Positions 1-46,389 of a stretch of DNA of 64,000 nucleotides are shown here, one piece after another. Source of the stretch: Escherichia phage ekra; the sequence record MN850644.1. One strand, 5' to 3'. The number at the start of each line of letters is the position of its first letter. The stretch's first letter is position 1. The notes below the pieces were generated by a model that searched no databases, had not been told where the DNA came from, and saw only the letters and a program-made list of their open reading frames with translations. The translations under genes and the position numbers were made by a program.

Positions 1-1465
1 CTTCTAACAAGCCTTCTAAACACTCTTCTAACAAGCCTTCTTAATAACCTATACAATCACCTTAACCATCCCTCTACACCCTCTTAGAAGCTCCTATACA
101 CCTCTTAATCTCTAGGTTAGCTATGTGACTCTCTATAGGTGTTCACTAGATATTACTAAGCCTCTATATAGACTGTTTTAACAAACTTAACAGGAATATC
201 TTTACAGACCTTATCTCACAAGGTCTAACACGGCACTAACAAGGTATCTTATAAGCCTGTTTCTACCTGTATTTTAGAAAGACTGTATAGGTAATTATTC
301 AGAATCTTAAAATTTTTATAAAATAGGACTATCAAGTCATTTTTTAGGGTCTTTGAAGGAACTGAAAAATATCTGTAGAAGATGTATATCTGCTTGGTAG
401 CCCTTAACAACTCCCTTACAAGTACTTTGCAAAATTTTAAAATATCCTTAACAATCTCTTAACAGTTCTCACATCTTCTTAACATCTCTTCAAAGGTCTT
501 AACAGATTCTTAACAGAACTAACAAGGGTGTAACAAATCTCTAACAAGTGCTACATAGACTTTACAGAATCTTAACAGATTGCTAACAAGAGCTAACAAG
601 TTAATTTTAAAGGATTATTTTGTAGGGATTGGTAACAATACCAATTAAGATAATTAACAAGTCTCTAACAAGTGTTTAATCTTTTTAACAAGCTGTTAAC
701 ATGGTCACTACTCTTTTCTTATCGTTCCCTTTCCTTTCTTAGTGATTCCTTAAACATACCTCTTAAAAGCTCTCTATAGCTCTTTATAAGCTCTTTTAAG
801 TCTCTTCCTAGTAGTTACACCCCAACTGTACAGATACCTCTTTATAGGGCTTTACAGGAGCTTTTAAGGCTATGTCAAAGACTCTTACAAGGCTTTTACG
901 TGGTCTTAACAAAGATTTAACAAGGGGCTAACAAGTTGCTAACAAGTGCCTTAAAAGCATAACTATGTAGGGATTGTTAAGAAATTGTTAAGAAAATGTT
1001 AAGGGGGCTAGCATTTACGTAACTTTTAAGCTACTTCAAAGTAACTTTAAAGCCCCTATAACATACTTTTCAGTTACTATCAAGGGGGTTGTTTAGTAGT
1101 TCACAAGATAGCTAACGAGATAATAAAGCTTACACCCTTATAAGATTCTTTTAAGGCTCTGTGAAGCTTTATAAAGGGCTTTTAAGGGTGAGGTAATGCA
1201 ATCCCTTAAGTTAGGTTAAAAAGGCCGTTATAGGGCTTTATATGGCGTTTAAATGGGTTGCCCCCTTTCTGGGGTTATTGGCTTATGTTTAAGGGCTTAT
1301 TAATAAGGCCAATTAATTGACTTAGTAAAAGGCTGTAAAGTTATTGCTTTTAAGGTCTGATAAGATTCTAGAAAGGAAAGGGAAAGGGATTGTATAAGGA
1401 TTCGATAGGATGCAAAAAGCCCCATTTAAGGGGCTGTATAAAGGTATCTGGGCTATTTAGCCCCG
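1..1465. repeat. Non-coding field of about 30 dispersed short repeats, consensus (C/T)TAACA(A/G), in both orientations, plus degenerate copies of the CTTTATAAG/AAGCTCTTTATA motif
   Basis: Read directly: cttctaacaagcc twice in first 40 nt, runs such as cttaacagattcttaacagaactaacaagg (about 497-530), ttaacaaggggctaacaagttgctaacaagtg (about 915-950), inverted copies tgttaag x3 near 975-1005; no ORF of 60 aa or more. Confidence 0.7.
1417..1437 (-). terminator. Hairpin (agcccc / aggggct) followed by T-run on minus strand, downstream of early gene cluster
   Basis: Inverted repeat aagccccatttaaggggct; minus-strand reading gives stem-loop then tttttgc. Confidence 0.45.
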
Positions 1466-1474
1466 TTGCGGCGT

Positions 1475-1723
1475 TTAGTTAGTGCCTTCTTTGTCGTAGT
1501 ACAGGGAGACAATTTTTTCGCCCCAATAGTGATAAGTGTAACCATCTTTAAGGGCTTCTTGTTTTGTTTCTTTCCAGAATTCATCAGAGGGGTTGTAGTC
1601 ACTGATGGTCTGGCTGATAAGGCCTTTCACCATTTCAAAGGCGTTATCAGTACCTACAAGGTCAAATTTAACGTCCAGAGAGTAGAAGCCAAATTCGTTA
1701 ACAGTTGCGCGGATAGTAGCCAT
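1475..1723 (-). CDS. hypothetical early protein (82 aa)
   Basis: ORF; start preceded by conserved leader/RBS cassette (type A hairpin at about 1745-1790). Confidence 0.5.
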   Translation of the reverse strand: MATIRATVNEFGFYSLDVKFDLVGTDNAFEMVKGLISQTISDYNPSDEFWKETKQEALKDGYTYHYWGEKIVSLYYDKEGTN

Positions 1724-1943
1724 TTTTGAATCTCCAGTTTAGGATTTTATTTAGTGGGGATGTTATTGCCTCCCCGTTGATTAGTAATTTACTTGTTTTG
1801 ATAGCTGATTGCAAGCAATTTTTTAAGCTTATCTATAAAGAATCTTTTAAGTGAATCCCTTTTAGATAAACCCCCTCGAACAAATTTACCAATGTCAAGG
1901 GGTATTGTCAATACTTTTTAAAAAGTTTTTTGTAAGTTATTGA

Positions 1944-2285
1944 TTAACTGATGAATATTTTTTCAGGTTTTACGTAGCTGATACGTTGGTTTTTTAGCAG
2001 GTCATCCCAGATTAGCGCGGCAATATGAGAATAACCGGATTCACGTAGAAGCTTCATTGTTTTACTTCTCGTTTCGAAGCGGCTCGCATAGTACTCACTG
2101 TTCAGAGTCGTTTTCTTCCCTTCATTGTCTACATGAATAATCTGCATCACTTGAAAGGGGCTGACATCCTCGCCTTTGTTCCACTGCTCAAAGTATTTTA
2201 GGCACTGCATAGGTGACATCTTATCACTTACTTGAGTTGACCAAGATGAATCTTCTTTATCGGTAATTACAGTTACATAAGCCAT
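1944..2285 (-). CDS. hypothetical early protein (113 aa)
   Basis: ORF; conserved cassette immediately upstream (2286-2365). Confidence 0.5.
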   Translation of the reverse strand: MAYVTVITDKEDSSWSTQVSDKMSPMQCLKYFEQWNKGEDVSPFQVMQIIHVDNEGKKTTLNSEYYASRFETRSKTMKLLRESGYSHIAALIWDDLLKNQRISYVKPEKIFIS

Positions 2286-2376
2286 TTTAGAATCTCCTAG
2301 TTTAAGGACTTTATTTAGTGGGGAAGGTCATTCCCTCCCCGTTGATTGACAATTTACAGACTTTTATCAGGCTTGT

Positions 2377-2610
2377 CTAGTCTTTTTCAATGATAATTTC
2401 ATATTGACCATCGACACTGTCAAAATAGACGCCGTCTTCATCTTCTGTCTTAAAGTAGCATTGAATATCATCACTGGCGGGATAGTCTTGTCTTGCTATC
2501 TGGCAAACTTGAATAGCATTTTCTTTACTCCCTGTAAACTCCTCAAGCCCTTTAAAATCACATGAATGACCATTACATATAGAAAGGATAAGATAAACGG
2601 TTGTAAGCAT
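2377..2610 (-). CDS. hypothetical small protein (77 aa), 4 Cys
   Basis: ORF with RBS-like aagagg upstream and GC hairpin at 2628-2645. Confidence 0.45.
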   Translation of the reverse strand: MLTTVYLILSICNGHSCDFKGLEEFTGSKENAIQVCQIARQDYPASDDIQCYFKTEDEDGVYFDSVDGQYEIIIEKD

Positions 2611-2676
2611 GATTTAAGCCTCTTAAAAGCCCCTACAAGGGGCTAATCAGTGTTTATAAGGTGATTGCATAGGTTT

Positions 2677-3219
2677 TTAGAAAAAGCTCTTTAAATCCTC
2701 TTCTGCAATGTTTCCTGTTAGTGTATCCATGATGTCACAAAAAACCTGAATACTGTCTGACTGTTGAACACTTTTAGCAAGAAGCTCCAGAGACTCATCA
2801 AGATAGTTTAAATTTGGGTTATCCAATGAAGGAAGACAAAAAGGTGAATACATAGCGTTAAACTCTGTTGTATAGACCTTTTTAATCCAATTTACATCAA
2901 AGTACTCTGTAAAACTTGCTACACTCGACATATTATCACAAGAATAATCATCATTTAGCTCATCCTCTGGAATATCGAGTTCTAAGATAACAATATTTTG
3001 AGTCTTCATCTGAAAAGCTGCGGTGATAGTGGCATTGCCTAGAGCTTGCTGAATGCCCTCTGATGCTATTTCTTCCTCATCGTCGCCATAGATTTTATTT
3101 TCTGGATACACGTAAAAATTGCCGTCCATATCCGAACAATTCCATGCGCCTGATGGTTTATCACCGTTATTAATCAGGTTGATAAAGTTTTCTTGAGTAG
3201 TACCGTGAAAGCATTTCAT
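2677..3219 (-). CDS. hypothetical highly acidic protein (180 aa)
   Basis: ORF; D/E-rich (DDEEEIASEG, DIPEDELNDDY); conserved type B cassette upstream (3220-3304). Confidence 0.55.
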   Translation of the reverse strand: MKCFHGTTQENFINLINNGDKPSGAWNCSDMDGNFYVYPENKIYGDDEEEIASEGIQQALGNATITAAFQMKTQNIVILELDIPEDELNDDYSCDNMSSVASFTEYFDVNWIKKVYTTEFNAMYSPFCLPSLDNPNLNYLDESLELLAKSVQQSDSIQVFCDIMDTLTGNIAEEDLKSFF

Positions 3220-3304
3220 TTTTGAATCTCCAGTTTAGGATTTAGTGGTAAAGCTCTTTATCTGGGGCTTAAGATATCAACTTTTAAGCCCCCTGTAAAG
3301 TACT

Positions 3305-3508
3305 TTATCCGTTAATTTTGACAACCTTTAAAACCGCGCGATAACCTAAGCAATAGGAATCACCGAAAAGCGTCCGACCCATGAAAGAATCCTCTTTGAT
3401 ATCCTTTGCAGTGACAGTTTTTTCTACGCCGTGGGAGAGGACTACATCACCGACTTTAATATCTTTGATGTGTGCAGTCTCGATAGATACACCGTTAATA
3501 ATAGCCAT
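3305..3508 (-). CDS. hypothetical small protein (67 aa)
   Basis: ORF; type A cassette upstream. Confidence 0.5.
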   Translation of the reverse strand: MAIINGVSIETAHIKDIKVGDVVLSHGVEKTVTAKDIKEDSFMGRTLFGDSYCLGYRAVLKVVKING

Positions 3509-3611
3509 TTTAGAATCTCCTAGTTTAAGGGTTTTATGTAGTGGGGATGGTCATTCCCTCCCCGTTGATGTGTAATTTAATATATATAAAAACCAGTGTC
3601 AACAAAAATTT

Positions 3612-4016
3612 TTAAAGTTCTGCATAAATTGCATCACAGATATTACGGAAGTCGTGATTTGACAAATTACGCTGCAACCAAGTGGCGAAAAAGTCAGCGA
3701 TTGCATAATTAGCATCATACTCGACGGATAGCCATACTTTAACAGCAAAACGAAACATTTTCAAATCAAGCTCCCTATTCATTACCTTAGATTTGCCTAA
3801 CATGTCGGCCATTTCATATTGTGCACCATCTAGCGTGATACCTGCTGCAACGTCAGTTAATGAGTTTTTTACGTTTTCAACGTCTAAGATAACACTTTGA
3901 ATCTTCCCGATAATGTTGTGCAATGTTTCATCGGGTGCTGATGATGTCAGAACATTAATCCGGTTAACGGTCAAACGTGCTTTTAAGATTGATAACTCAC
4001 GGTTATTAATAGCCAT
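3612..4016 (-). CDS. hypothetical protein (134 aa)
   Basis: ORF; type B cassette upstream (4017-4101). Confidence 0.5.
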   Translation of the reverse strand: MAINNRELSILKARLTVNRINVLTSSAPDETLHNIIGKIQSVILDVENVKNSLTDVAAGITLDGAQYEMADMLGKSKVMNRELDLKMFRFAVKVWLSVEYDANYAIADFFATWLQRNLSNHDFRNICDAIYAEL

Positions 4017-4101
4017 TTTAGAATCTCCAATTTAGGATTGAGTGATAAAGCTCTTTATCTGGGGCTTACTTTATCGAACTATAAGCCCCTTGTAAAGTAC
4101 T

Positions 4102-4374
4102 TTATACTAAATGCAGCTTTTTACCTTTTACCATGATGTAACTTGTTGCGCTATTGCTGTGCACATCTTGATAAATTCTGCGCAAACGTCCTTTGTAGTA
4201 TACTTTCCAACTAGTTGGAATCTTTTTACCGTATCCTGTAGCAGTTTTTTGCAGCCCTGCAAGTTGCCAATTCAGAATATGTTGTTCGGCTTGTAAATCC
4301 TCGAAGTGCATTACACCGTTCACATAGTGGCGCAGGGTTACGTTTAAGGTGCGACCGTTGTTAGTAGTATACAT
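4102..4374 (-). CDS. hypothetical protein (90 aa)
   Basis: ORF; type A cassette upstream. Confidence 0.5.
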   Translation of the reverse strand: MYTTNNGRTLNVTLRHYVNGVMHFEDLQAEQHILNWQLAGLQKTATGYGKKIPTSWKVYYKGRLRRIYQDVHSNSATSYIMVKGKKLHLV

Positions 4375-4462
4375 TTTGAATCTCCTAGTTTAAGGGTTTT
4401 ATGTAGTGGGGAGGTCATTTCCTCCCCGTTGATTAGTAATTTACTTGCTTTAAAAACCAAAA

Positions 4463-4795
4463 TCAAGAGGAATTTTTTCGTTTGCTCAATTCTTGAACAA
4501 TTACAGCGTGATAGTCTTTCAAGTCACTGATGTTTAAAGCATTTATCAGAGAATTATAATCATCAACTAACTGAAAATCATCTTTGAAGATGTCACTTAT
4601 CTGATAGGTTTTCGCTTTATATCTGAAGCTCATTTCTAACCGTTTTAATTGTTCATCACTCAAACGCCCTAGAAAGCTCTCTACAAGGCTATTTCTAACC
4701 TGCTGCGTGATTGCCTTACTTGCCAGATTATAGGCTTTATATGCCTTATAAAGTGCTATAATGGCAATGATTGCAGTGATACCAGTCATTAACAT
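4463..4795 (-). CDS. hypothetical protein with N-terminal transmembrane helix (110 aa)
   Basis: ORF; hydrophobic N-terminus ITAIIAIIALY; 7-nt overlap with upstream ORF. Confidence 0.5.
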   Translation of the reverse strand: MLMTGITAIIAIIALYKAYKAYNLASKAITQQVRNSLVESFLGRLSDEQLKRLEMSFRYKAKTYQISDIFKDDFQLVDDYNSLINALNISDLKDYHAVIVQELSKRKNSS

Positions 4796-5085
4796 GGTAT
4801 TTCCTCTTTACGTGATACTTTACCATTTACAGTTATCTCATAGGATTCTAATAAATCGCTTTTAGACTTTACAGGACTTTTAAAAGTATCATCATAAATA
4901 TTAACTTGCAATACAGGTTTTTTATATTCCCTGCAACTATTCCATAAGCAAATCACTACACGACGGCCTTTTATTTTGCCGTGTAACCATTCCATAACAT
5001 CATGACTATTTCTTGATGTCTCGATAAAATCAATTTTGTTGAGTAACTTGCTTAGATTTTCACGAACTTTATTCGATAATTTCAT
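4789..5085 (-). CDS. hypothetical protein (98 aa)
   Basis: ORF; type B cassette upstream (5086-5170). Confidence 0.5.
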   Translation of the reverse strand: MKLSNKVRENLSKLLNKIDFIETSRNSHDVMEWLHGKIKGRRVVICLWNSCREYKKPVLQVNIYDDTFKSPVKSKSDLLESYEITVNGKVSRKEEIPC

Positions 5086-5277
5086 TTTAGAATCTCCAGT
5101 TTAGGATTTAGTGGTAAAGCTCTTTATCTGGGGCTATCTTACCAGCTTGATAACCCCGTGTAAAGAAATCTATTTAGTCCTTAAAGATATTCATCACTGA
5201 GTCTTTTAATGATTCCAAACGTTCTAATACTTCAGATTCTGCGTCTGAGTTGTTCACTTCTTCTTTTAGCCTGTCAT

Positions 5278-5685
5278 CTAAATCATCGCCGTCACTATAG
5301 CACCAATCAAAAGCGTAACCGATATAAAACTGTCTAAAATTGTTTGACCATTTGCATCGACAACTTTCGCGGCAAGGTTGTATTCTGAAGCCTCTAAATC
5401 TCTTTCTAGTTCTTTCTGTAAGCTTGTGTAAGCCTCTTTTGATGGATTTTCCCGGCCTTGTTTTGCATAGTCACTTGAAAGCTGTTTAAGGCTGTAATGC
5501 AAAGGGATTGCATATTTAAAATCATTACGCTGACAGTTGGGATTTTTAACAGTCACACCGCCTTGATGGTCGTTTGTAAACTCCCAATTATCGAGATTAT
5601 GGCTTGCTTCGTAGCAATTTACCGCTTCGTAAATGATGGAAAATTTTTCTTTTACAACTTCAAAGGTAGCGTCTACAGTTTTCAT
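5278..5685 (-). CDS. hypothetical protein (135 aa)
   Basis: ORF; type B cassette upstream (5686-5780). Confidence 0.5.
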   Translation of the reverse strand: MKTVDATFEVVKEKFSIIYEAVNCYEASHNLDNWEFTNDHQGGVTVKNPNCQRNDFKYAIPLHYSLKQLSSDYAKQGRENPSKEAYTSLQKELERDLEASEYNLAAKVVDANGQTILDSFISVTLLIGAIVTAMI

Positions 5686-5780
5686 TTTTGAATCTCCTAG
5701 TTTAAGGACTTGATTTAGTGGTAAAGCTCTTTATCTGGGGCTTAAGATACCAACTTTTAAGCCCCTTGTAAAGTACTTTA

Positions 5781-6038
5781 TCAGATTAAATTGCCAGTTA
5801 ATGATAAGTGCATTTTATAGCCTTTTTTGGTAAACACGTTCACTTTACCGAGTGATTTTACACCTTTAAAAAGGTTGTTTGAATTACGTTTTAAGGTTAA
5901 TTGCTTATCCGACTTCACGTTCCACCTTACAGCGGATTGTTTTCCGTTGTCAACCACTTTCCCGCCTAACTTTTTCGCCATGATGCGAGCGTCATCACGA
6001 GTTTTTGCAGGAATTACAACGTTTTTGATAATAGCCAT
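5781..6038 (-). CDS. hypothetical basic protein (85 aa)
   Basis: ORF; K/R-rich; type B cassette upstream. Confidence 0.5.
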   Translation of the reverse strand: MAIIKNVVIPAKTRDDARIMAKKLGGKVVDNGKQSAVRWNVKSDKQLTLKRNSNNLFKGVKSLGKVNVFTKKGYKMHLSLTGNLI

Positions 6039-6123
6039 TTTTGAATCTCCAATTTAGGATTTAGTGGTAAAGCTCTTTATCTGGGGCTTACTTTATCGAA
6101 CTATAAGCCCCTTGTAAAGTACT

Positions 6124-6507
6124 TTATTTGTTAATTTTGAAGATAGTTACATAACCATCGCTGCCGATGATTTGTGATGCTCCAGCTTTTTCTACTTGAT
6201 AGCCCATATTTTCAAGATGGTAAACAGCATCATCATAACCATATGCGCCGCCCTGATAACGTCTCTTATCACATCTTACTAATACCTTTCCACGTCCTGC
6301 CAGTGCATTTAGTACGGCTTTTTCACTTGAAAGTGTACCATCTAACATGGTTGCCGTGTAATGGTTGATTCTATTCCCGTTTACATCATACTTAAAATTG
6401 AATGCGTGAACAACGATAATGTTACCTTTAAAATTTTCATCAAGTGACTTCTCCAGTGCGTTGCGAAAGTTGTCTTTGTTGATGAATTTAGGTGCACGAT
6501 ATGCCAT
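6124..6507 (-). CDS. hypothetical protein (127 aa)
   Basis: ORF; type B cassette upstream (6508-6597). Confidence 0.5.
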   Translation of the reverse strand: MAYRAPKFINKDNFRNALEKSLDENFKGNIIVVHAFNFKYDVNGNRINHYTATMLDGTLSSEKAVLNALAGRGKVLVRCDKRRYQGGAYGYDDAVYHLENMGYQVEKAGASQIIGSDGYVTIFKINK

Positions 6508-6597
6508 TTTTGAATCTCCTAGTTTAAGGGTTAATTTGGTAAAGCTCTTTATCTGGGGCTTACTTTATCGAACTATAAGCCCCTTGTAAAGTACTTT

Positions 6598-6819
6598 TTA
6601 TTTATCGTAGTAGTAAATTGCTGTCTGTCTCGTAAATTTTTTAGTATTTCTTGTAAGGTAGCAATTAGAGTTTATAGCTGTTTCTACATAGTTGCAATAG
6701 TCAGCTTCTGATATTCTGGACCATACGCCACAGATTTGCATGTAAAAACGTTTTGCCTTTGTGTTAACGTTAGTTGTAACCATCAATTCGCGACTGTAAA
6801 GCATTATTTCGCGCTCCAT
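6598..6819 (-). CDS. hypothetical protein (73 aa)
   Basis: ORF; 16-nt overlap with upstream ORF. Confidence 0.45.
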   Translation of the reverse strand: MEREIMLYSRELMVTTNVNTKAKRFYMQICGVWSRISEADYCNYVETAINSNCYLTRNTKKFTRQTAIYYYDK

Positions 6820-6992
6820 TTCTCAAAGAGTTCAGCAGGGAAACGTTCGCTATACCCTTTTAAGGAAAAAGTATTATCTTTGTGGATAGCTTCCACCTGA
6901 TAAACCTTATAAGAGCGTATAGTTAGCATTTTGTAAGAGTATTCGTGCTTAATGTTAACCTCATCGCCAACTTTAATTTTTCTTGATGCCAT
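6804..6992 (-). CDS. hypothetical protein (62 aa), first gene of the early cluster
   Basis: ORF; type A cassette upstream (6993-7060). Confidence 0.45.
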   Translation of the reverse strand: MASRKIKVGDEVNIKHEYSYKMLTIRSYKVYQVEAIHKDNTFSLKGYSERFPAELFEKWSAK

Positions 6993-7205
6993 TTTTGAAT
7001 CTCCAGTTTAGGATTTTATTTAGTGGGGAAGGTCATTCCCTCCCCGTTGATGTAAATATTAGATAACCACGTTCAAAGAGTCAATAAAAATTTTAAAAAT
7101 ATTTTTGGCAAAACTGTAATGAAACGGGTGCGCAAGACTACCACAAAACAGAACGCAAATCAAGAATTATTTTTCAATCCGCTACAAATTTTTCTCTTGA
7201 CTTTT

Positions 7206-7240
7206 GGGGAGAGGGGGAGTAAGAGGGGGAGAGGGGTTGG
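7206..7240 (+). other. Canonical G-quadruplex-forming purine tract (C-rich on the transcribed minus strand)
   Basis: ggggagagggggagtaagagggggagaggggttggg: five G3-5 runs with short loops, in an otherwise AT-rich genome. Confidence 0.5.
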
Positions 7241-7249
7241 GCTGGCTGT

Positions 7250-7450
7250 CTATAAAAACCTACCTGCACAATTCTAAAATGATTTTTCTTGCCCGACCTG
7301 AGCGGGGTCTGCACGTTTTGAAAATGAAAAAGCTCTTTGGAGATTACCTGCACAGTTTGAAAATGAATTTTCTCTTTGGAGTTCAAAATTCTCTCTACAG
7401 ATTTCTCTACAGAACTCTACCTGCACAATTCTAAAATGAAAAAGCCCTCC
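7250..7450. repeat. Four copies of a roughly 20-bp repeat, acctgcaca(a/g)tt(c/t)t(a/g)aaaatga, in the non-coding region upstream of the early cluster
   Basis: Copies read at about 7261, 7301, 7347 and 7420; associated motif ctctttggag twice. Confidence 0.5.
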
Positions 7451-7512
7451 TTACCTGAAAAATTTACCAGATAAGAAAGGCTTAGGCTATTGTGAATATA
7501 CTACAGAGTTTC

Positions 7513-8298
7513 TTAGTTCTTTGCGTCTAAGAAGGTAACTTCTGGTGAAGAGAAGATTGCCTCGATATCCTCATCAGTTCTTGCATAGATATAAGCTTCT
7601 GCATCACTACCAAATGTTACAGCAATTCTGTGATTGCTCTTTGACAGGTGGGTAACTAGAGCGTTACTTAGAGACATCTTTTCAACCGGAGGGTTACTTT
7701 GATGTATCTTACCTTTTCTTCGTCTGAAGAGGGTAACTGCGTTATCTGTGAACACTGCTACACCTGCAAAGTATTCTGGTTCACAGTAGTTCTTCCAACC
7801 TGAGCGTAACTTGTGGTACATCTCGCCTTCATAGACATACAGATAAACATCTACACTCTTCATCACCTGATTGATGATAACTGTGACAGCTTGAGGGTCA
7901 AGTCCACCGATACCTGCACCAATCATAGGTAAACCAACTTTCTTCAACTGATTAACTTCACAGTATCTGTTAAGCTGTTTCAAAGATGACTCTAAAGCAC
8001 TGTATCGGGCATCTTTACCAGTCTTAAGCTGAGTGTAAAGGTTAGCTATACGACCTTGTTTTAAGCGTGCTACAGAGAAATTACCTAGTAAATTCTCACA
8101 GGGTTTGTGACCTATACCACCTGCATAGAGATAAACTTCTGTATCGGTCTCATATGCTTTTGGGTAAAGTTTAGAAATCTTGTCAGCGATACCTGCGCCC
8201 ATTAGGTTCATGCAGTTACAACCATGACCAATGATGTCAAACTTACCTTTATCAAATGCAGCAAAGATATCACCATTGATGATTTTTACAATACCCAT
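7513..8298 (-). CDS. Macrodomain protein, TARG1/DarG-like ADP-ribose-processing fold, with about 110-aa C-terminal extension
   Basis: N-terminal NGDIF...IIGHGCNCMNLMGAGIA matches the HCxS/N...MGxGIA signature of TARG1-type macrodomains; second glycine-rich stretch MIGAGIGGLD. Confidence 0.6.
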   Translation of the reverse strand: MGIVKIINGDIFAAFDKGKFDIIGHGCNCMNLMGAGIADKISKLYPKAYETDTEVYLYAGGIGHKPCENLLGNFSVARLKQGRIANLYTQLKTGKDARYSALESSLKQLNRYCEVNQLKKVGLPMIGAGIGGLDPQAVTVIINQVMKSVDVYLYVYEGEMYHKLRSGWKNYCEPEYFAGVAVFTDNAVTLFRRRKGKIHQSNPPVEKMSLSNALVTHLSKSNHRIAVTFGSDAEAYIYARTDEDIEAIFSSPEVTFLDAKN

Positions 8299-37504: not shown

Positions 37505-37761
37505 GTAAGCCTCTTTTAAGTAACTATTTAGTTTTAATCTTTTATCTTAACGTATTCTATACGTTATACTTTAAAGCTTTTTAAAAGCTATTAAATAATC
37601 TTTTAAGAGTTTTAAAGTATCTGTATAGTTAAACTGTTAAGTAACCTTTTAAGTAAAAACCCACTTCGCAAAGATTAACACCTTGTCAAGTGCATTGTCA
37701 ACTTGCTTTTTATAATTTTTTGCAGTAATGTATGAGGTTAATGATTTTAGAGGGAGTAAAA
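37505..37761. promoter_or_regulatory. Divergent intergenic region at the strand switch; AT-rich, contains duplicated TTGTCAA and TATAAT-like hexamers
   Basis: No ORF; ccttgtcaagtgcattgtcaacttgctttttataatt; genes diverge from here on both strands. Confidence 0.45.
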
Positions 37762-40461
37762 ATGGAAAACGTAGATTTTAAAAACTTACATTTAGTTGGT
37801 GATACAGAAACTGATGGTTTACTCCTTGAGTTCACTAAAGTGCACGTAATGGCTTTCGCAGACTATAAATCTGACGATGAAGAGCCACCTGTATGGGTCT
37901 TTACAGATGAGCCTATCCTCGGTCACAAGTACACTAAGTACATCAAGGGCGGCTTACGTGAAGGTGTTGAATTTGCGTTAAAGGCAAAACGTCTTTGCAT
38001 CCATAATGGTCTCGGCTATGACTGGTGGGTTTTCAATCACATTGCGCCTGATTTATGGAACTTTGATAATCCAAAATGTAAGCCGTGGAGTAATTTCTTT
38101 CAGGATTCTCTTATCCAGTCTCGTGTTCAGTGGATGGATAGGCCAACCCCAAAGGGTTATAAAGGTGCTCATGGTTTGGCTGCATGGGGTGCTCGTGTTG
38201 GTGTCCGTAAACCAGAGATTGAACATTGGGGTGTGTGGAATGCAGAAATCTTCACTCGTGTTGTAGAAGATATCCGTATTAACGCCAAAACTAAACGGGC
38301 ACTTGATAATGAGTATCTCAAGCTTAAGAAGTGTGGCATAGATACTTATGAAACCTATATGCGAGCTAAAGAAACATCTTTCTGGATGAGTCAACAAGCT
38401 ATCAATGGTTGGAAAGCTGATAAGGAGCTTATGGAGTTCCATGTAAAGGAACTTGACAAGTTGACTAATGAGCTTGCTTCAGAGGTTGAACCACATCTTC
38501 CTCCAACTATTAAGACCAAAGGTAAAGTGACTGGAGAAGAGTTTGCAAAAGCTTGGAATGAGTATGTTGAAACATTTGGTCATGCAGATGGACTGAAGAG
38601 GATTACCAAGTACCCTAAGACAAAGTATCGTCAGCAGGTACGTAATGGTGAGATGCAGACATATGAAATCAAGCCATTTGGTAAGCCAACTACAAAGATT
38701 TTTAACATTGAAAAGAGAAATTGCTATACACCAACCAACTCTGTAACTGGTGAAGAGTACAAGGAGGGTTTTGTAGCAATGAAGGATGCTCGTGAAATTT
38801 GCAATGAGTTGAATGCAAAGATTGGTAAGAAATGCAAAGACTGGAAGCCAGTAAAAACAGTCAAAACTGTGAAGTACTATAACAGTCACGTTGTTAACCA
38901 CTTTGAACTTGAGTCAAGTCGCTACACAGGTTTGATTGATGCACCGTATACACCAATTGAGTTTGAAGTTTCTCGTATGACTCAGGTAGCAGTTGTTAAA
39001 GACTACTTGAAATCAGTTGGTTGGATTCCAGATGACTGGAACTACAAGAAAGACTCAGATGGTCGCCCTGTCAAAGTTTGTCGTTTCAAAGACAATAAAA
39101 AGATGATTACAAAACATCCTAAGTGGCAGGAAATGGTTGAGCGGTGTGGTTTGAGCTATGTTGAGCACGAAGGTGTACAGTATATTGAGCATAACTGGTC
39201 TGTGAAGAAGTACACAGATTTGCTTGAGCCTTGCTTAATCCGTACTTCACCAAAACTTACTGAATCATCTTATGATACGATTGAAGGTGAGCTTGGACAG
39301 AAGATTGCGAAATACTACACTTTGATGCACAGACGCAGAACTATTGAGAACTCAAAGGATGATGAAAAAGGTTGGTTGAACCAGATTCGTCCTGATGGTC
39401 GCCTTAGTGCTGGTGCAATGGTGTTTGGTACTTCAACTGGACGTATGACACAATATGGTATTGTAAACGTACCGTCTGGTGCTGCTGTCTATGGGGAACC
39501 AATGAGGGCAGTGTGGATTTGTGAGGAAGGGACTAACGTTGTCTCTGTAGACATGAACTCAGCCCAGCTAGTTCTTCTTTGTAACTTTATGGGTGACAAA
39601 GACTTCACCAAAGCGGTAACGCAAGGTAAAGAAGAGATTGAGTTCATTCGTCAAGAAGATGGACGCTATTACTGCAAACATTTTGATGAGTATCTCAACC
39701 CAGAAATTGATAAGTACCTTCGCTATGACTCTGAGAATGACCTGTACGTTGTCTATTCAGGGACTGATGCACATACACTGAACAGTATTTACTTTAGCTT
39801 GAATGATGAGCAGGATATCTTGACTTGTCGAGCTACTCAGGATGAGAATCTTCTTCATGAGATTAGCAAAGGTCGTAAGAAAGCTAAGAATGGTATCTAT
39901 GCACTGCTGTTCGGTGCAGGTGATGAGAAGTTTGCTAAGACGATTAAAGCTGCAACTACTCAGGAAGGAGCACTGACTAAACAGACTTACTTTATTCGTT
40001 TGCCTAAAATTAAGAAGCTGCTAGATGACTTGGAAGCTGACTACAAAGCAACTAAAAAGGCACTTGAAGAGGTGTTTGGTAAGACTGCTGCAATCTCTAA
40101 AGGGGGTTTTGTAAAGGTTGCTGGAGCTTGGTTGTGGTGTAAATCTCCACATAAGTTATTGAATTATTTGCTCATGGGTTCAGAGGCTCAGATTCAAAAT
40201 GAGGCGATTAACCTTGCTTGTAGAAGAGCATGTGAAGAAGGGTTGACAAAATTAAATGGACGAAAACCAGCAATTGGTGCTAGGCTTTTGCTGGCATACC
40301 ACGATGAAAACAGTTGGGAGTGCCCAGAAAGTATGACTCAAGAAGTTAAAGCCATAACTGACTGGATGTATGGTCAGGCATCTAAGAATTTAGGTTTGAA
40401 GAGTGAGACGCTTGTAACTGGCACAGGTAAGGTTGGTAAGAGCTGGTTGGAAGTGCATTGA
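37762..40461 (+). CDS. DNA polymerase, family A (T7/Pol I-like)
   Basis: Motif A-like SVDMNSAQL, motif B-like KAKNGIYALLFGAG, motif C LLAYHDE; start placed at ATG with GGGAG RBS (MENVDF). Confidence 0.85.
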   Translation: MENVDFKNLHLVGDTETDGLLLEFTKVHVMAFADYKSDDEEPPVWVFTDEPILGHKYTKYIKGGLREGVEFALKAKRLCIHNGLGYDWWVFNHIAPDLWNFDNPKCKPWSNFFQDSLIQSRVQWMDRPTPKGYKGAHGLAAWGARVGVRKPEIEHWGVWNAEIFTRVVEDIRINAKTKRALDNEYLKLKKCGIDTYETYMRAKETSFWMSQQAINGWKADKELMEFHVKELDKLTNELASEVEPHLPPTIKTKGKVTGEEFAKAWNEYVETFGHADGLKRITKYPKTKYRQQVRNGEMQTYEIKPFGKPTTKIFNIEKRNCYTPTNSVTGEEYKEGFVAMKDAREICNELNAKIGKKCKDWKPVKTVKTVKYYNSHVVNHFELESSRYTGLIDAPYTPIEFEVSRMTQVAVVKDYLKSVGWIPDDWNYKKDSDGRPVKVCRFKDNKKMITKHPKWQEMVERCGLSYVEHEGVQYIEHNWSVKKYTDLLEPCLIRTSPKLTESSYDTIEGELGQKIAKYYTLMHRRRTIENSKDDEKGWLNQIRPDGRLSAGAMVFGTSTGRMTQYGIVNVPSGAAVYGEPMRAVWICEEGTNVVSVDMNSAQLVLLCNFMGDKDFTKAVTQGKEEIEFIRQEDGRYYCKHFDEYLNPEIDKYLRYDSENDLYVVYSGTDAHTLNSIYFSLNDEQDILTCRATQDENLLHEISKGRKKAKNGIYALLFGAGDEKFAKTIKAATTQEGALTKQTYFIRLPKIKKLLDDLEADYKATKKALEEVFGKTAAISKGGFVKVAGAWLWCKSPHKLLNYLLMGSEAQIQNEAINLACRRACEEGLTKLNGRKPAIGARLLLAYHDENSWECPESMTQEVKAITDWMYGQASKNLGLKSETLVTGTGKVGKSWLEVH

Positions 40462-45884: not shown

Positions 45885-46097
45885 ATGGCTCTTAAAAAGT
45901 TACATCCCAGAAGCGGTTATGGTAAGATAATTGACGATACAGACGGCTTTACAGTCTTTACAGTCATCTGTCAAGATGATTCACAGATTGAAAAGGCTCT
46001 TGACGATTATCTTAATGATGAACGTGAAAAGGTTAGGGCTACAAACATAGATTCATTAATTGACACTTCACGTAAACGGAAGAAGAAAGATGAATGA
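45885..46097 (+). CDS. hypothetical protein (70 aa)
   Basis: ORF. Confidence 0.4.
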   Translation: MALKKLHPRSGYGKIIDDTDGFTVFTVICQDDSQIEKALDDYLNDEREKVRATNIDSLIDTSRKRKKKDE

Positions 46098-46389
46098 AGT
46101 TTTTGACCCTTATGCTCCACAAGATGATTGGGAGGCTGACAGAGAGGCTGAAATGGAGAGTTATGTTTGTCCAATGGATGTAGACGAAATGAGAGACTTC
46201 GTTGCACATCGTTTTAAGAGAGAGATTAAATCCAGAGGTCTTTCTCAAGAGCAAGTTGCTAAAATTTGTGGTATCTCTCAGGCTCGTGTATCCAACATAA
46301 TCCACCTCACTGGGAATGTTTCCCTTGAGTATATGTTGGAAGTATGTGAAAAATTTGGTGTTAATTTTAATTTAAGGTTGGCAGATTAA
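46090..46389 (+). CDS. Helix-turn-helix (XRE/Cro-like) DNA-binding protein
   Basis: LSQEQVAKICGISQARVSNI; ATGAATGA start/stop overlap with upstream gene. Confidence 0.5.
   Translation: MNEVFDPYAPQDDWEADREAEMESYVCPMDVDEMRDFVAHRFKREIKSRGLSQEQVAKICGISQARVSNIIHLTGNVSLEYMLEVCEKFGVNFNLRLAD

Follow-up and report, generated by a model that had tools for sequence, protein, structure and literature searches.

A conserved array of bipartite direct repeats in Escherichia phage ekra: probable protein-binding sites and a possible replication origin

What is the role of four short direct repeats that stand together in non-coding DNA of Escherichia phage ekra? The question was addressed in a 64-kb stretch of the sequence record MN850644.1, hereafter the window, whose numbering is used for coordinates and strands. 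The repeats lie inside a 520-nt non-coding gap, bounded on one side by the terminator of a macro-domain gene and on the other by the sigma-70 promoter that heads a small-gene cluster; this is where the original prediction, made from the sequence alone, had placed them, and it had proposed that they may be early promoters or operator sites. By sequence similarity the window belongs to Felixounavirus, the genus of the Felix-O1-type phages: the 2-kb stretch round the array is 99% identical to the Felixounavirus isolates LF82P5 and LF82P2, and 91-98% identical to many Felix-O1-like phages of Escherichia and Salmonella. Since the window runs reverse-complemented with respect to the usual Felix O1 map, every gene round the locus is a minus-strand gene. 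Felix O1 and the phages related to it are classics of phage diagnostics and therapy. The array is probably a set of protein-binding sites on duplex DNA, and the explanation favoured here, tentatively and with a probability of roughly 0.3, is an iteron-like array bound by a sequence-specific, probably phage-encoded protein and serving as a replication origin or origin enhancer.

On the plus strand, a 19-nt motif stands in four direct copies, at 7264-7282, 7309-7327, 7348-7366 and 7421-7439, with start-to-start spacings of 45, 39 and 73 nt. The pattern CTGCACNNTTYKAAAATGA matches all four without mismatch, and allowing up to two mismatches gives no further match on either strand of the 64 kb. 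In shuffled sequence the mean number of matches was 0.11, and none of 100 shuffles reached four, which confirms that the four same-strand repeats are real. The consensus offered by the original prediction is one base too long and finds a single site, with three mismatches; likewise, the start acctgcac given there does not hold for copy 2, which begins gtCTGCAC and not acCTGCAC. The statement that two copies are followed by CTCTTTGGAG was borne out for copies 2 and 3, at 7333-7342 and 7372-7381.

The anatomy of the unit was described from 136 units (89 distinct) in 35 distinct arrays. Each unit holds a bipartite core of TGCAC, a 7-nt A/T-rich linker (RNWTYKR, at least 26 variants) and AAATGA, with 12 bp from the start of one block to the start of the other, about one helical turn; the invariance of the core in this set is partly circular, because the selection pattern demanded most core bases, and it is seen independently in orthologous alignments. 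After the core come four to five A·T pairs, positions +18 to +21 being G/C at 1 of 356 positions, and this run may be an A-run or a T-run (AAAAG in 29, ATTTT in 14 and TTTTT in 10 distinct units). The unit then ends in a C-rich tail of one of three types, namely CTCTTTGGAG, CTTGCC(C/A)GACC and CCCTCC(TT/AG)ACC; the tail type of unit 1, TTTTTCTTGCC(C/A)GACC, is also that of unit 2 in the Erwinia phage phiEa21-4. As a unit is about 40 bp long, units 1-3 nearly abut, and units 3 and 4 are parted by an insert of 34-36 bp. The distance from unit 3 to unit 4 is kept (73-77 nt), the sequence of the spacer less so, and it is unit 3 that is missing from three-copy variants such as phiWec174. In unit 4, the A-run and tail are at the same time the T-run and 3' arm of the minus-strand terminator.

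The array is confined to one place in the genome. In the complete genome of JLBYU32 (86,143 bp) the exact core TGCAC-N7-AAATGA occurs four times, all in the array, and with one mismatch allowed three more scattered sites are found against 2.5 expected; neither in the 64-kb window nor in this complete 86-kb genome does the motif stand at any other gene. Beyond these genomes, a scan of IMG/VR with a two-copy pattern returned 29 contigs, all sized like complete or partial Ounavirinae genomes (51-94 kb, most of them 84-94 kb), while a scan of the same type over 185,579 species-representative GTDB genomes gave eight unrelated matches, none of them in Enterobacterales. Matches in metagenomes were either Ounavirinae or unrelated perfect tandem repeats; among them, the TGCACCCATTTCAAATGA arrays on unrelated contigs poor in open reading frames (ORFs), such as L053, L084 and L105, were dropped as matches forced by the pattern. 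By blastn, the array had no match in plasmids or in 5,426 complete E. coli genomes, and Rfam gave no match in the array. A repeat of the CRISPR (clustered regularly interspaced short palindromic repeats) kind, or an RNA anti-CRISPR, was rejected, the sole match to a CRISPR direct repeat lying outside the array at 7701-7737 with E = 1.3. The GenBank records annotate only a terminator, a promoter or spurious ORFs at this locus. Direct repeats of 24 bp or more are listed in the genome paper of Felix O1, and those of the array are not among them (PMC3185647). The literature searched on Felix O1 and Ounavirinae repeats, promoters, origin and transcriptomes gave no description of the array and no 5'-end or RNA sequencing data for an Ounavirinae phage. 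Clustered direct-repeat arrays of binding sites are well known as a kind; what seems to be undescribed is this family, with its bipartite core and its distribution.

A search for the motif in related genomes, which the original prediction had proposed as a check, revealed an array of three or four units on the same strand, directly past the macro-gene terminator, in all four Ounavirinae genera sampled: Felixounavirus, Suspvirus (SUSP1), Mooglevirus (Moogle, Sf17 and KMM4) and Kolesnikvirus (the Erwinia phages phiEa21-4 and MM7). The units are spaced at 45, 39-41 and 73-77 nt in the first three genera, at 39, 37 and 37 nt in the Erwinia phages, and at 45 and 75 nt in three-unit variants. Over 29 distinct four-unit arrays, pairwise identity reaches 99% in the core columns, 78% in the N7 linker and 83% in the other array columns. 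The window and Moogle share 81% identity in the array and 76% in the macro coding sequence; between the window and phiEa21-4, the macro coding sequence is 65% identical and the neighbouring non-coding DNA cannot be aligned, with all four cores kept. Through blastn with a 513-nt intergenic query it was found that the units are the only part still matching the Erwinia phages, of which 28 match the array region. Immediately 5' of TGCAC, the enterobacterial phages have a C, and all four Erwinia-phage units have an A. As a separate observation, the order of unit types is shuffled in three Ounavirinae contigs of IMG/VR (L031, L040 and L041, the last having two Moogle-type units and then two Felix-type units) with number and spacing the same, which suggests recombination between units. 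Two records named for other hosts, GU169904 (Staphylococcus phage SA1) and MG065664 (Campylobacter phage A132), are 88-93% identical to the Felixounavirus locus, and their labels or samples were probably mixed up.

A coding origin of the repeats was considered and rejected. A plus-strand ORF does pass through units 1-3 in frame (L-H-x-x-K-M), but it is not kept in Moogle or the Erwinia phages, and the frame is automatic because the ATGA of the motif closes the second one. The ORFs annotated here differ in identity and strand between genomes, the units are split by indels of 2 and 4 nt between genera, and the would-be synonymous (wobble) positions of the core are invariant where the codons in between differ radically. 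The two ORFs predicted at 7174-7386 (minus) and 7204-7434 (plus), which the original prediction had taken for probable artefacts, are artefacts, and ORFs across this region are wrongly annotated in many GenBank records.

Two conserved blocks one helical turn apart, together with an A·T run of free strand polarity, point to a protein that reads duplex DNA and not to an RNA or a peptide. One locus per genome, a kept number and spacing of units, and a flanking base that changes in concert fit an iteron-like array on which a higher-order complex is built. The concerted difference between C and A, to be expected of sites that co-evolve with a phage protein, suggests a phage-encoded binder, since Erwinia and E. 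coli do not differ in the obvious host factors. Binding by a protein, the identity of that protein and its part in replication are what we infer from these patterns, and the mechanism would run as follows. A single protein would read each unit through TGCAC and AAATGA, making base contacts in two major grooves on either side of the A/T-rich 7-bp linker, and would recognise the narrow minor grooves of the A·T run by shape and not by base identity. Three or four occupied units would then build a higher-order nucleoprotein complex at a site unique in the genome, and this complex would mark the replication origin or an origin enhancer. Strand opening would take place in the adjoining G-rich mirror repeat and A/T-rich block, and the promoter at 7084-7056 would supply transcriptional activation. 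The origin role was chosen because a mirror repeat, an A/T-rich block, a meltable A/T palindrome and a promoter within 200 bp resemble the origins of phages and plasmids.

Among such origins, oriλ has four 19-bp O-protein sites beside an A/T-rich region, the iterons of P1, F and R6K are of 19-22 bp, and those of T4 oriE depend on RepEB. Like iterons in general, the array has at least three direct repeats within the range of 17-22 bp, in one orientation and at one locus per replicon. The likeness extends to the three or four direct repeats of about 19 bp at a single non-coding locus, to the flanking promoter and an A/T-rich stretch that may melt easily, and to a copy number that is kept while the units diverge. 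The differences are that the units of the array are 37-75 bp apart whereas iterons abut at about 22 bp, that each unit carries an extra tail of about 20 bp, that there is no recognisable initiator gene nearby, and that the origin role is here predicted.

Several findings weigh against the origin reading. No recognisable DNA-binding or initiator domain is encoded by the ten neighbouring genes. The only clear helix-turn-helix (HTH) protein of the window, an XRE/Cro-type protein encoded at 46060-46389, has matches in 258 records of Felixounavirus, Mooglevirus and Suspvirus; by tblastn (E<=1e-3) it was undetected in the Erwinia phages, which carry the array. At 37-75 bp, the units are spaced more widely and less regularly than classical iterons, and the helical phasing is inconsistent between genera. 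Furthermore, the array stands within a long co-directional transcription unit, the GC skew mainly follows the direction of transcription, with no switch at the locus, and the stretch from 7075, which ranks only sixth among the least stable 30-bp stretches of the window, serves at the same time as UP region of the promoter. Finally, a more conventional origin candidate is offered by 37505-37731, a divergent intergenic region and the most A/T-rich one. This region lies between the DNA polymerase gene (37732-40461, plus strand) and a minus-strand gene, and it contains the least stable 100-bp stretch of the window (at about 37516), a palindrome of 27 nt at 37566-37620 together with several CTTTTAAG-type repeats, which makes the region a candidate alternative origin or early control region. 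Whichever process the array controls, be it the start of replication, an early-gene switch or DNA entry, it provides an exact handle for finding that process and the binding protein, and phage engineers should treat the region as potentially cis-essential.

The proposal that the repeats are early promoters found little in its favour. In its most specific form, the units would be tandem promoters, either weak plus-strand sigma-70 promoters that use a tail as -35 and the next (T/G)AAAAT as -10, or promoters for a phage-modified RNA polymerase, and this is judged very unlikely. The case for it comes from phiEa21-4 (L009), in which the 37-nt period sets the tail TTGCCA 17 nt before the next (T/G)AAAAT and so creates two promoter-like sites; these junctions, TTGCCA-17-TAAAAT (10/12) and TTGCCA-17-GAAAAT (9/12), score as plus-strand promoters at 2025-2053 and 2062-2090 of that phage, and a strong TTGACG-18-TATACT (1791-1820, plus) points into the array from 150 nt upstream. 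TAAAAT is also present in units 1 and 4 of the window. Nevertheless, the junction promoters are not kept in the other genera, and no sigma-70 site (-35 and -10 at 16-18 bp) is called on either strand within 7255-7455 or in the Moogle units; in the window TTGCCC stands 25 nt from GAAAAT, and the other junction gives only TTGGAG-16-GAAAAT. Sigma-70 promoters conserve chiefly -11A and -7T of the -10 element and the TTG of the -35 element and vary in the spacer; the invariant bases are misplaced for such a promoter, with TGCAC in the would-be spacer and others at -10 to -8 and -6/-5, while the would-be -11 is G in 23 of 89 distinct units (26%) and C in 1. The motif is absent from the other early intergenic regions, plus-strand output would only run antisense to the macro gene, and the genome of Felix O1 codes for neither an RNA polymerase nor a known factor that modifies sigma (PMC3185647). 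Judged by their sequence, the units do not fit sigma-70 promoter logic, and the early promoters are not supported; operator sites, in the broad sense of protein-binding sites, agree with the evidence. An element that acts at the level of RNA appears improbable as well. Here the repeated and unstructured motif UGCAC-N7-AAAUGA of the plus strand would be a decoy, sponge or processing substrate for an RNA-binding protein or nuclease, in the manner of type III antitoxin (ToxI-like) arrays or the pseudo-ToxI of phiTE. Type III antitoxin RNAs (ToxI, CptI, TenpI) and phage pseudo-ToxI consist of 2-6 tandem non-coding units, each 34-45 nt long, with a hairpin after them, and such repeats are known as phage-carried decoys. 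The array is similar to them in unit length (37-45 nt) and copy number, AAAU is present in every unit, a hairpin closes the array on the plus strand, and the strong plus-strand promoter of the Erwinia phages would suit transcription through it. Yet type III arrays are near-identical in their units, fixed in period and alike to host arrays, whereas the present array varies in period (45/39/73 in the window, 39/37/37 in the Erwinia phages), has three tail types, and swaps A-run for T-run at the same position, a change that is neutral for duplex DNA and not for RNA. No plus-strand promoter is called in the window or Moogle, and the hairpin has no T-run on that strand. Fold z-scores for the single sequence were +0.25 (plus strand) and -1.35 (minus strand, terminator included), and consensus folds of -4.8 and -11.0 kcal/mol came with at most one compensatory pair, so that neither strand has a conserved RNA fold. 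The searches of Rfam, of the Enterobacterales GTDB representatives, of plasmids and of E. coli genomes, described above, likewise gave no counterpart of the phage array in a host or plasmid.

Regulation of transcription from duplex DNA comes close behind the favoured explanation, though it is still rather unlikely. Bound to the four units as an operator or as upstream activating sites, a phage regulator would switch the promoter at 7084-7056 and with it the terminal small-gene cluster, or would insulate against read-through from the rII-macro operon. The array does lie exactly between the macro terminator (7483-7442) and the first cluster promoter, the phage encodes the XRE-type HTH protein, and the minus-strand complement of 7206-7236, with its likeness to a Rho loading site, would suit a boundary region. 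Phage switch arrays of this general kind are the four p4 sites of φ29, which lie between its early and late promoters, and the direct-repeat Cox/Apl boxes of P2 and 186; these have in common with the array several intergenic sites for one small phage protein and, as would be the case here, a higher-order complex. Their sites, however, overlap or abut promoters, whereas 180 bp part the nearest core of the array (7265) from the -35 hexamer (7084), and the farthest unit is about 360 bp from it, distances unusual for sigma-70 control. About ten other cluster promoters lack such sites, the first downstream gene differs among genomes, so that the array is not tied to one regulated gene, and the failure to detect the HTH protein in the Erwinia phages counts here too. 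In favour of a switch it may be added that, according to the 2010 genome paper, the timing of Felix O1 transcription is not understood and its temporal control is unexplained (PMC3185647). A pause or anchor for DNA entry is given a slight chance only. According to this explanation a myovirus would deliver its DNA in two steps as T5 does: a terminal segment of about 7 kb with the small genes would enter and be expressed first, and the rest of the DNA would follow only after the terminal-segment proteins had acted. What points to it is position, in addition to better conservation than the flanking genes and the DnaA-box-like cores of the Erwinia phages. The array is 6.9-7.0 kb, or about 8% of an 88-kb genome, from the end inferred by homology, and in the terminal segment each gene is small, of unknown function and provided with its own sigma-70 promoter. 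In T5 the first-step-transfer segment is 7.9%, and the untranslated stop region is conserved (preprint 10.1101/866236); the array would thus be comparable as a conserved untranslated repeat region at about 8% from the end, bordering terminal small early genes, with non-coding repeats that are conserved more strongly than the genes next to them. However, the T5 signal itself lacks a definition, and the T5 region is much larger, spanning 1.2-1.7 kb rich in inverted repeats and palindromes, with paired DnaA boxes and a place inside a 10-kb terminal repeat (10.1101/866236), whereas the array covers 0.2 kb, has direct repeats only, and stands 6 kb from a 0.6-kb terminal repeat. The literature searched reports no two-step DNA transfer for Felix O1-like phages, the termini of this phage are inferred by homology only, and the likeness to DnaA boxes is absent in the window and Moogle. 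If the explanation were true, a T5-like strategy would have arisen independently with a different, phage-specific site.

Known host factors were compared with the units. A DnaA box is matched at 8 of 9 positions in all four Erwinia-phage units, while no DnaA box with up to one mismatch is present in the units of the window or of Moogle. No IHF site was found in the units. For sigma-54, the GCAC agrees with the -24 element, but the -12 TTGC is absent at the needed spacing. Sites of CRP, NtrC, PhoB and Fis (compared by eye or pattern) and type I restriction sites such as EcoKI GCAC(N6)GTT do not fit. With the F-plasmid iteron some units have ACAAATTG in common, in the variable linker only.

The features of the array and of its surroundings are collected in Table 1.

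Table 1. Coordinates of the array units, the adjoining elements and the genes referred to in the text (window numbering).
Feature	Position	Strand	Description
Unit 1	7261-7301	+	TGCAC (7265-7269)-N7-AAATGA (7277-7282), then TTTTT and C-rich tail CTTGCCCGACC
Unit 2	7306-7342	+	TGCAC (7310)-GTTTTGA-AAATGA (7322-7327), then AAAAG and CTCTTTGGAG (7333-7342)
Unit 3	7345-7381	+	TGCAC (7349)-AGTTTGA-AAATGA (7361-7366), then ATTTT and CTCTTTGGAG (7372-7381)
Long spacer between units 3 and 4	7382-7417	+	Two copies of TCTCTACAGA, 7392-7401 and 7404-7413
Unit 4	7418-7454	+	TGCAC (7422)-AATTCTA-AAATGA (7434-7439), then AAAAG and CCCTCCTTACC
Intrinsic terminator of the macro-domain gene	7483-7442	-	17-bp stem, then TTTTTCATTTT; annotated in ASO1A and XTG1
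Purine-only, G-rich tract	7206-7236	+	Directly 5' of unit 1; minus strand C-rich and G-free
A/T-rich block	7140-7205	.	Nearly invariant in Felixounavirus, Mooglevirus and Suspvirus
First promoter of the small-gene cluster	7084-7056	-	Sigma-70-type TTGACT-17-TAATAT; annotated in ASO1A
Next gene past the array	6804-6992	-	Gene of the small-gene cluster
Macro-domain 'phosphatase' gene	7513-8298	-	Pfam Macro
XRE/Cro-type HTH protein	46060-46389	+	109 aa; Pfam HTH_3, E = 6e-10; only clear HTH in the window

Beside unit 1, the arms GGGGAGAGGGGGAG and GAGGGGGAGAGGGG of the purine tract (14 nt each) form a perfect mirror repeat round TAA. Such a tract could form H-DNA or a G-quadruplex, and its C-rich, G-free minus strand looks like a Rho loading site. 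A G-rich tract occupies the same place in Moogle, SUSP1 and the Erwinia phages, and it is replaced in phiWec174. The A/T-rich block next to it may be part of the same element as the array; it holds a TTGACT (7197-7202, plus) with a poor -10, TAAGAG, 17 nt on, and no promoter is called there. An A/T-rich palindrome at 7082-7107 lies upstream of the cluster promoter, the whole element spanning 7056-7112. The idea that the units are terminator remnants was rejected, as units 1-3 have no upstream complementary arm. A second terminator, at 9840-9813 on the minus strand, carries the same TTTTTCATTTT / TTTTTCATTTTAG tail as the terminator that overlaps unit 4, and the 11-mer TTTTTCATTTTAG has three occurrences in the window in all.

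Another possibility, that the array marks a genome end or pac site, was suggested by the records of Andreotti, which starts in the locus, and KhF1, which ends there; it was rejected, the mapped terminal repeat being about 6 kb away. The Andreotti record (MN850610, L003/L004) starts in the non-coding region 40 nt before unit 1, and its other end is an inverted duplication of a gene start, which identifies an assembly artefact and not a genome end. A likeness to packaging signals was also considered: the R-sites of λ cosB are three or four copies of a small-terminase site of about 16 bp, non-coding and irregularly spaced at 40-50 bp. Unlike the array, cosB abuts the cleavage site, whereas the array is about 6.3 kb (boundary 1008) to 6.9 kb (end 396) from the inferred end, and no small terminase subunit is known in Felix O1. 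In Pr103Blw, a 581-bp direct terminal repeat was mapped by PhageTerm and is annotated about 6 kb from the array (PMC8303462); it corresponds to window 396-1008 with 87% identity. In UAB_Phi87, a terminal repeat of 608 bp was shown experimentally (PMC4837284). By this homology the physical end of the present genome is probably near 396, and the window would start about 395 nt beyond it, as in a circularised assembly.

The minus-strand gene order at the locus is rIIA, rIIB and further genes, the macro-domain gene, the terminator, the gap, the promoter and the small-gene cluster. Among the ten neighbouring proteins no Pfam domain other than Macro was found, and their PHROG families are all of unknown function. 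Nearly every gene of the cluster has its own sigma-70-type promoter, and these are ordinary TTTACA/TTGACA-17-TAnnnT sequences. The cluster (1400-7100) is made up of recurring modules of promoter, 5' hairpin and ribosome site, with intergenic modules of 100 nt that occur many times; these are the counterparts of the long direct repeats that the Felix O1 paper gives (PMC3185647). At two gene starts of the cluster, 6501-6519 and 6986-7004, ATGCCATTTTTGAATCTCC is identical.

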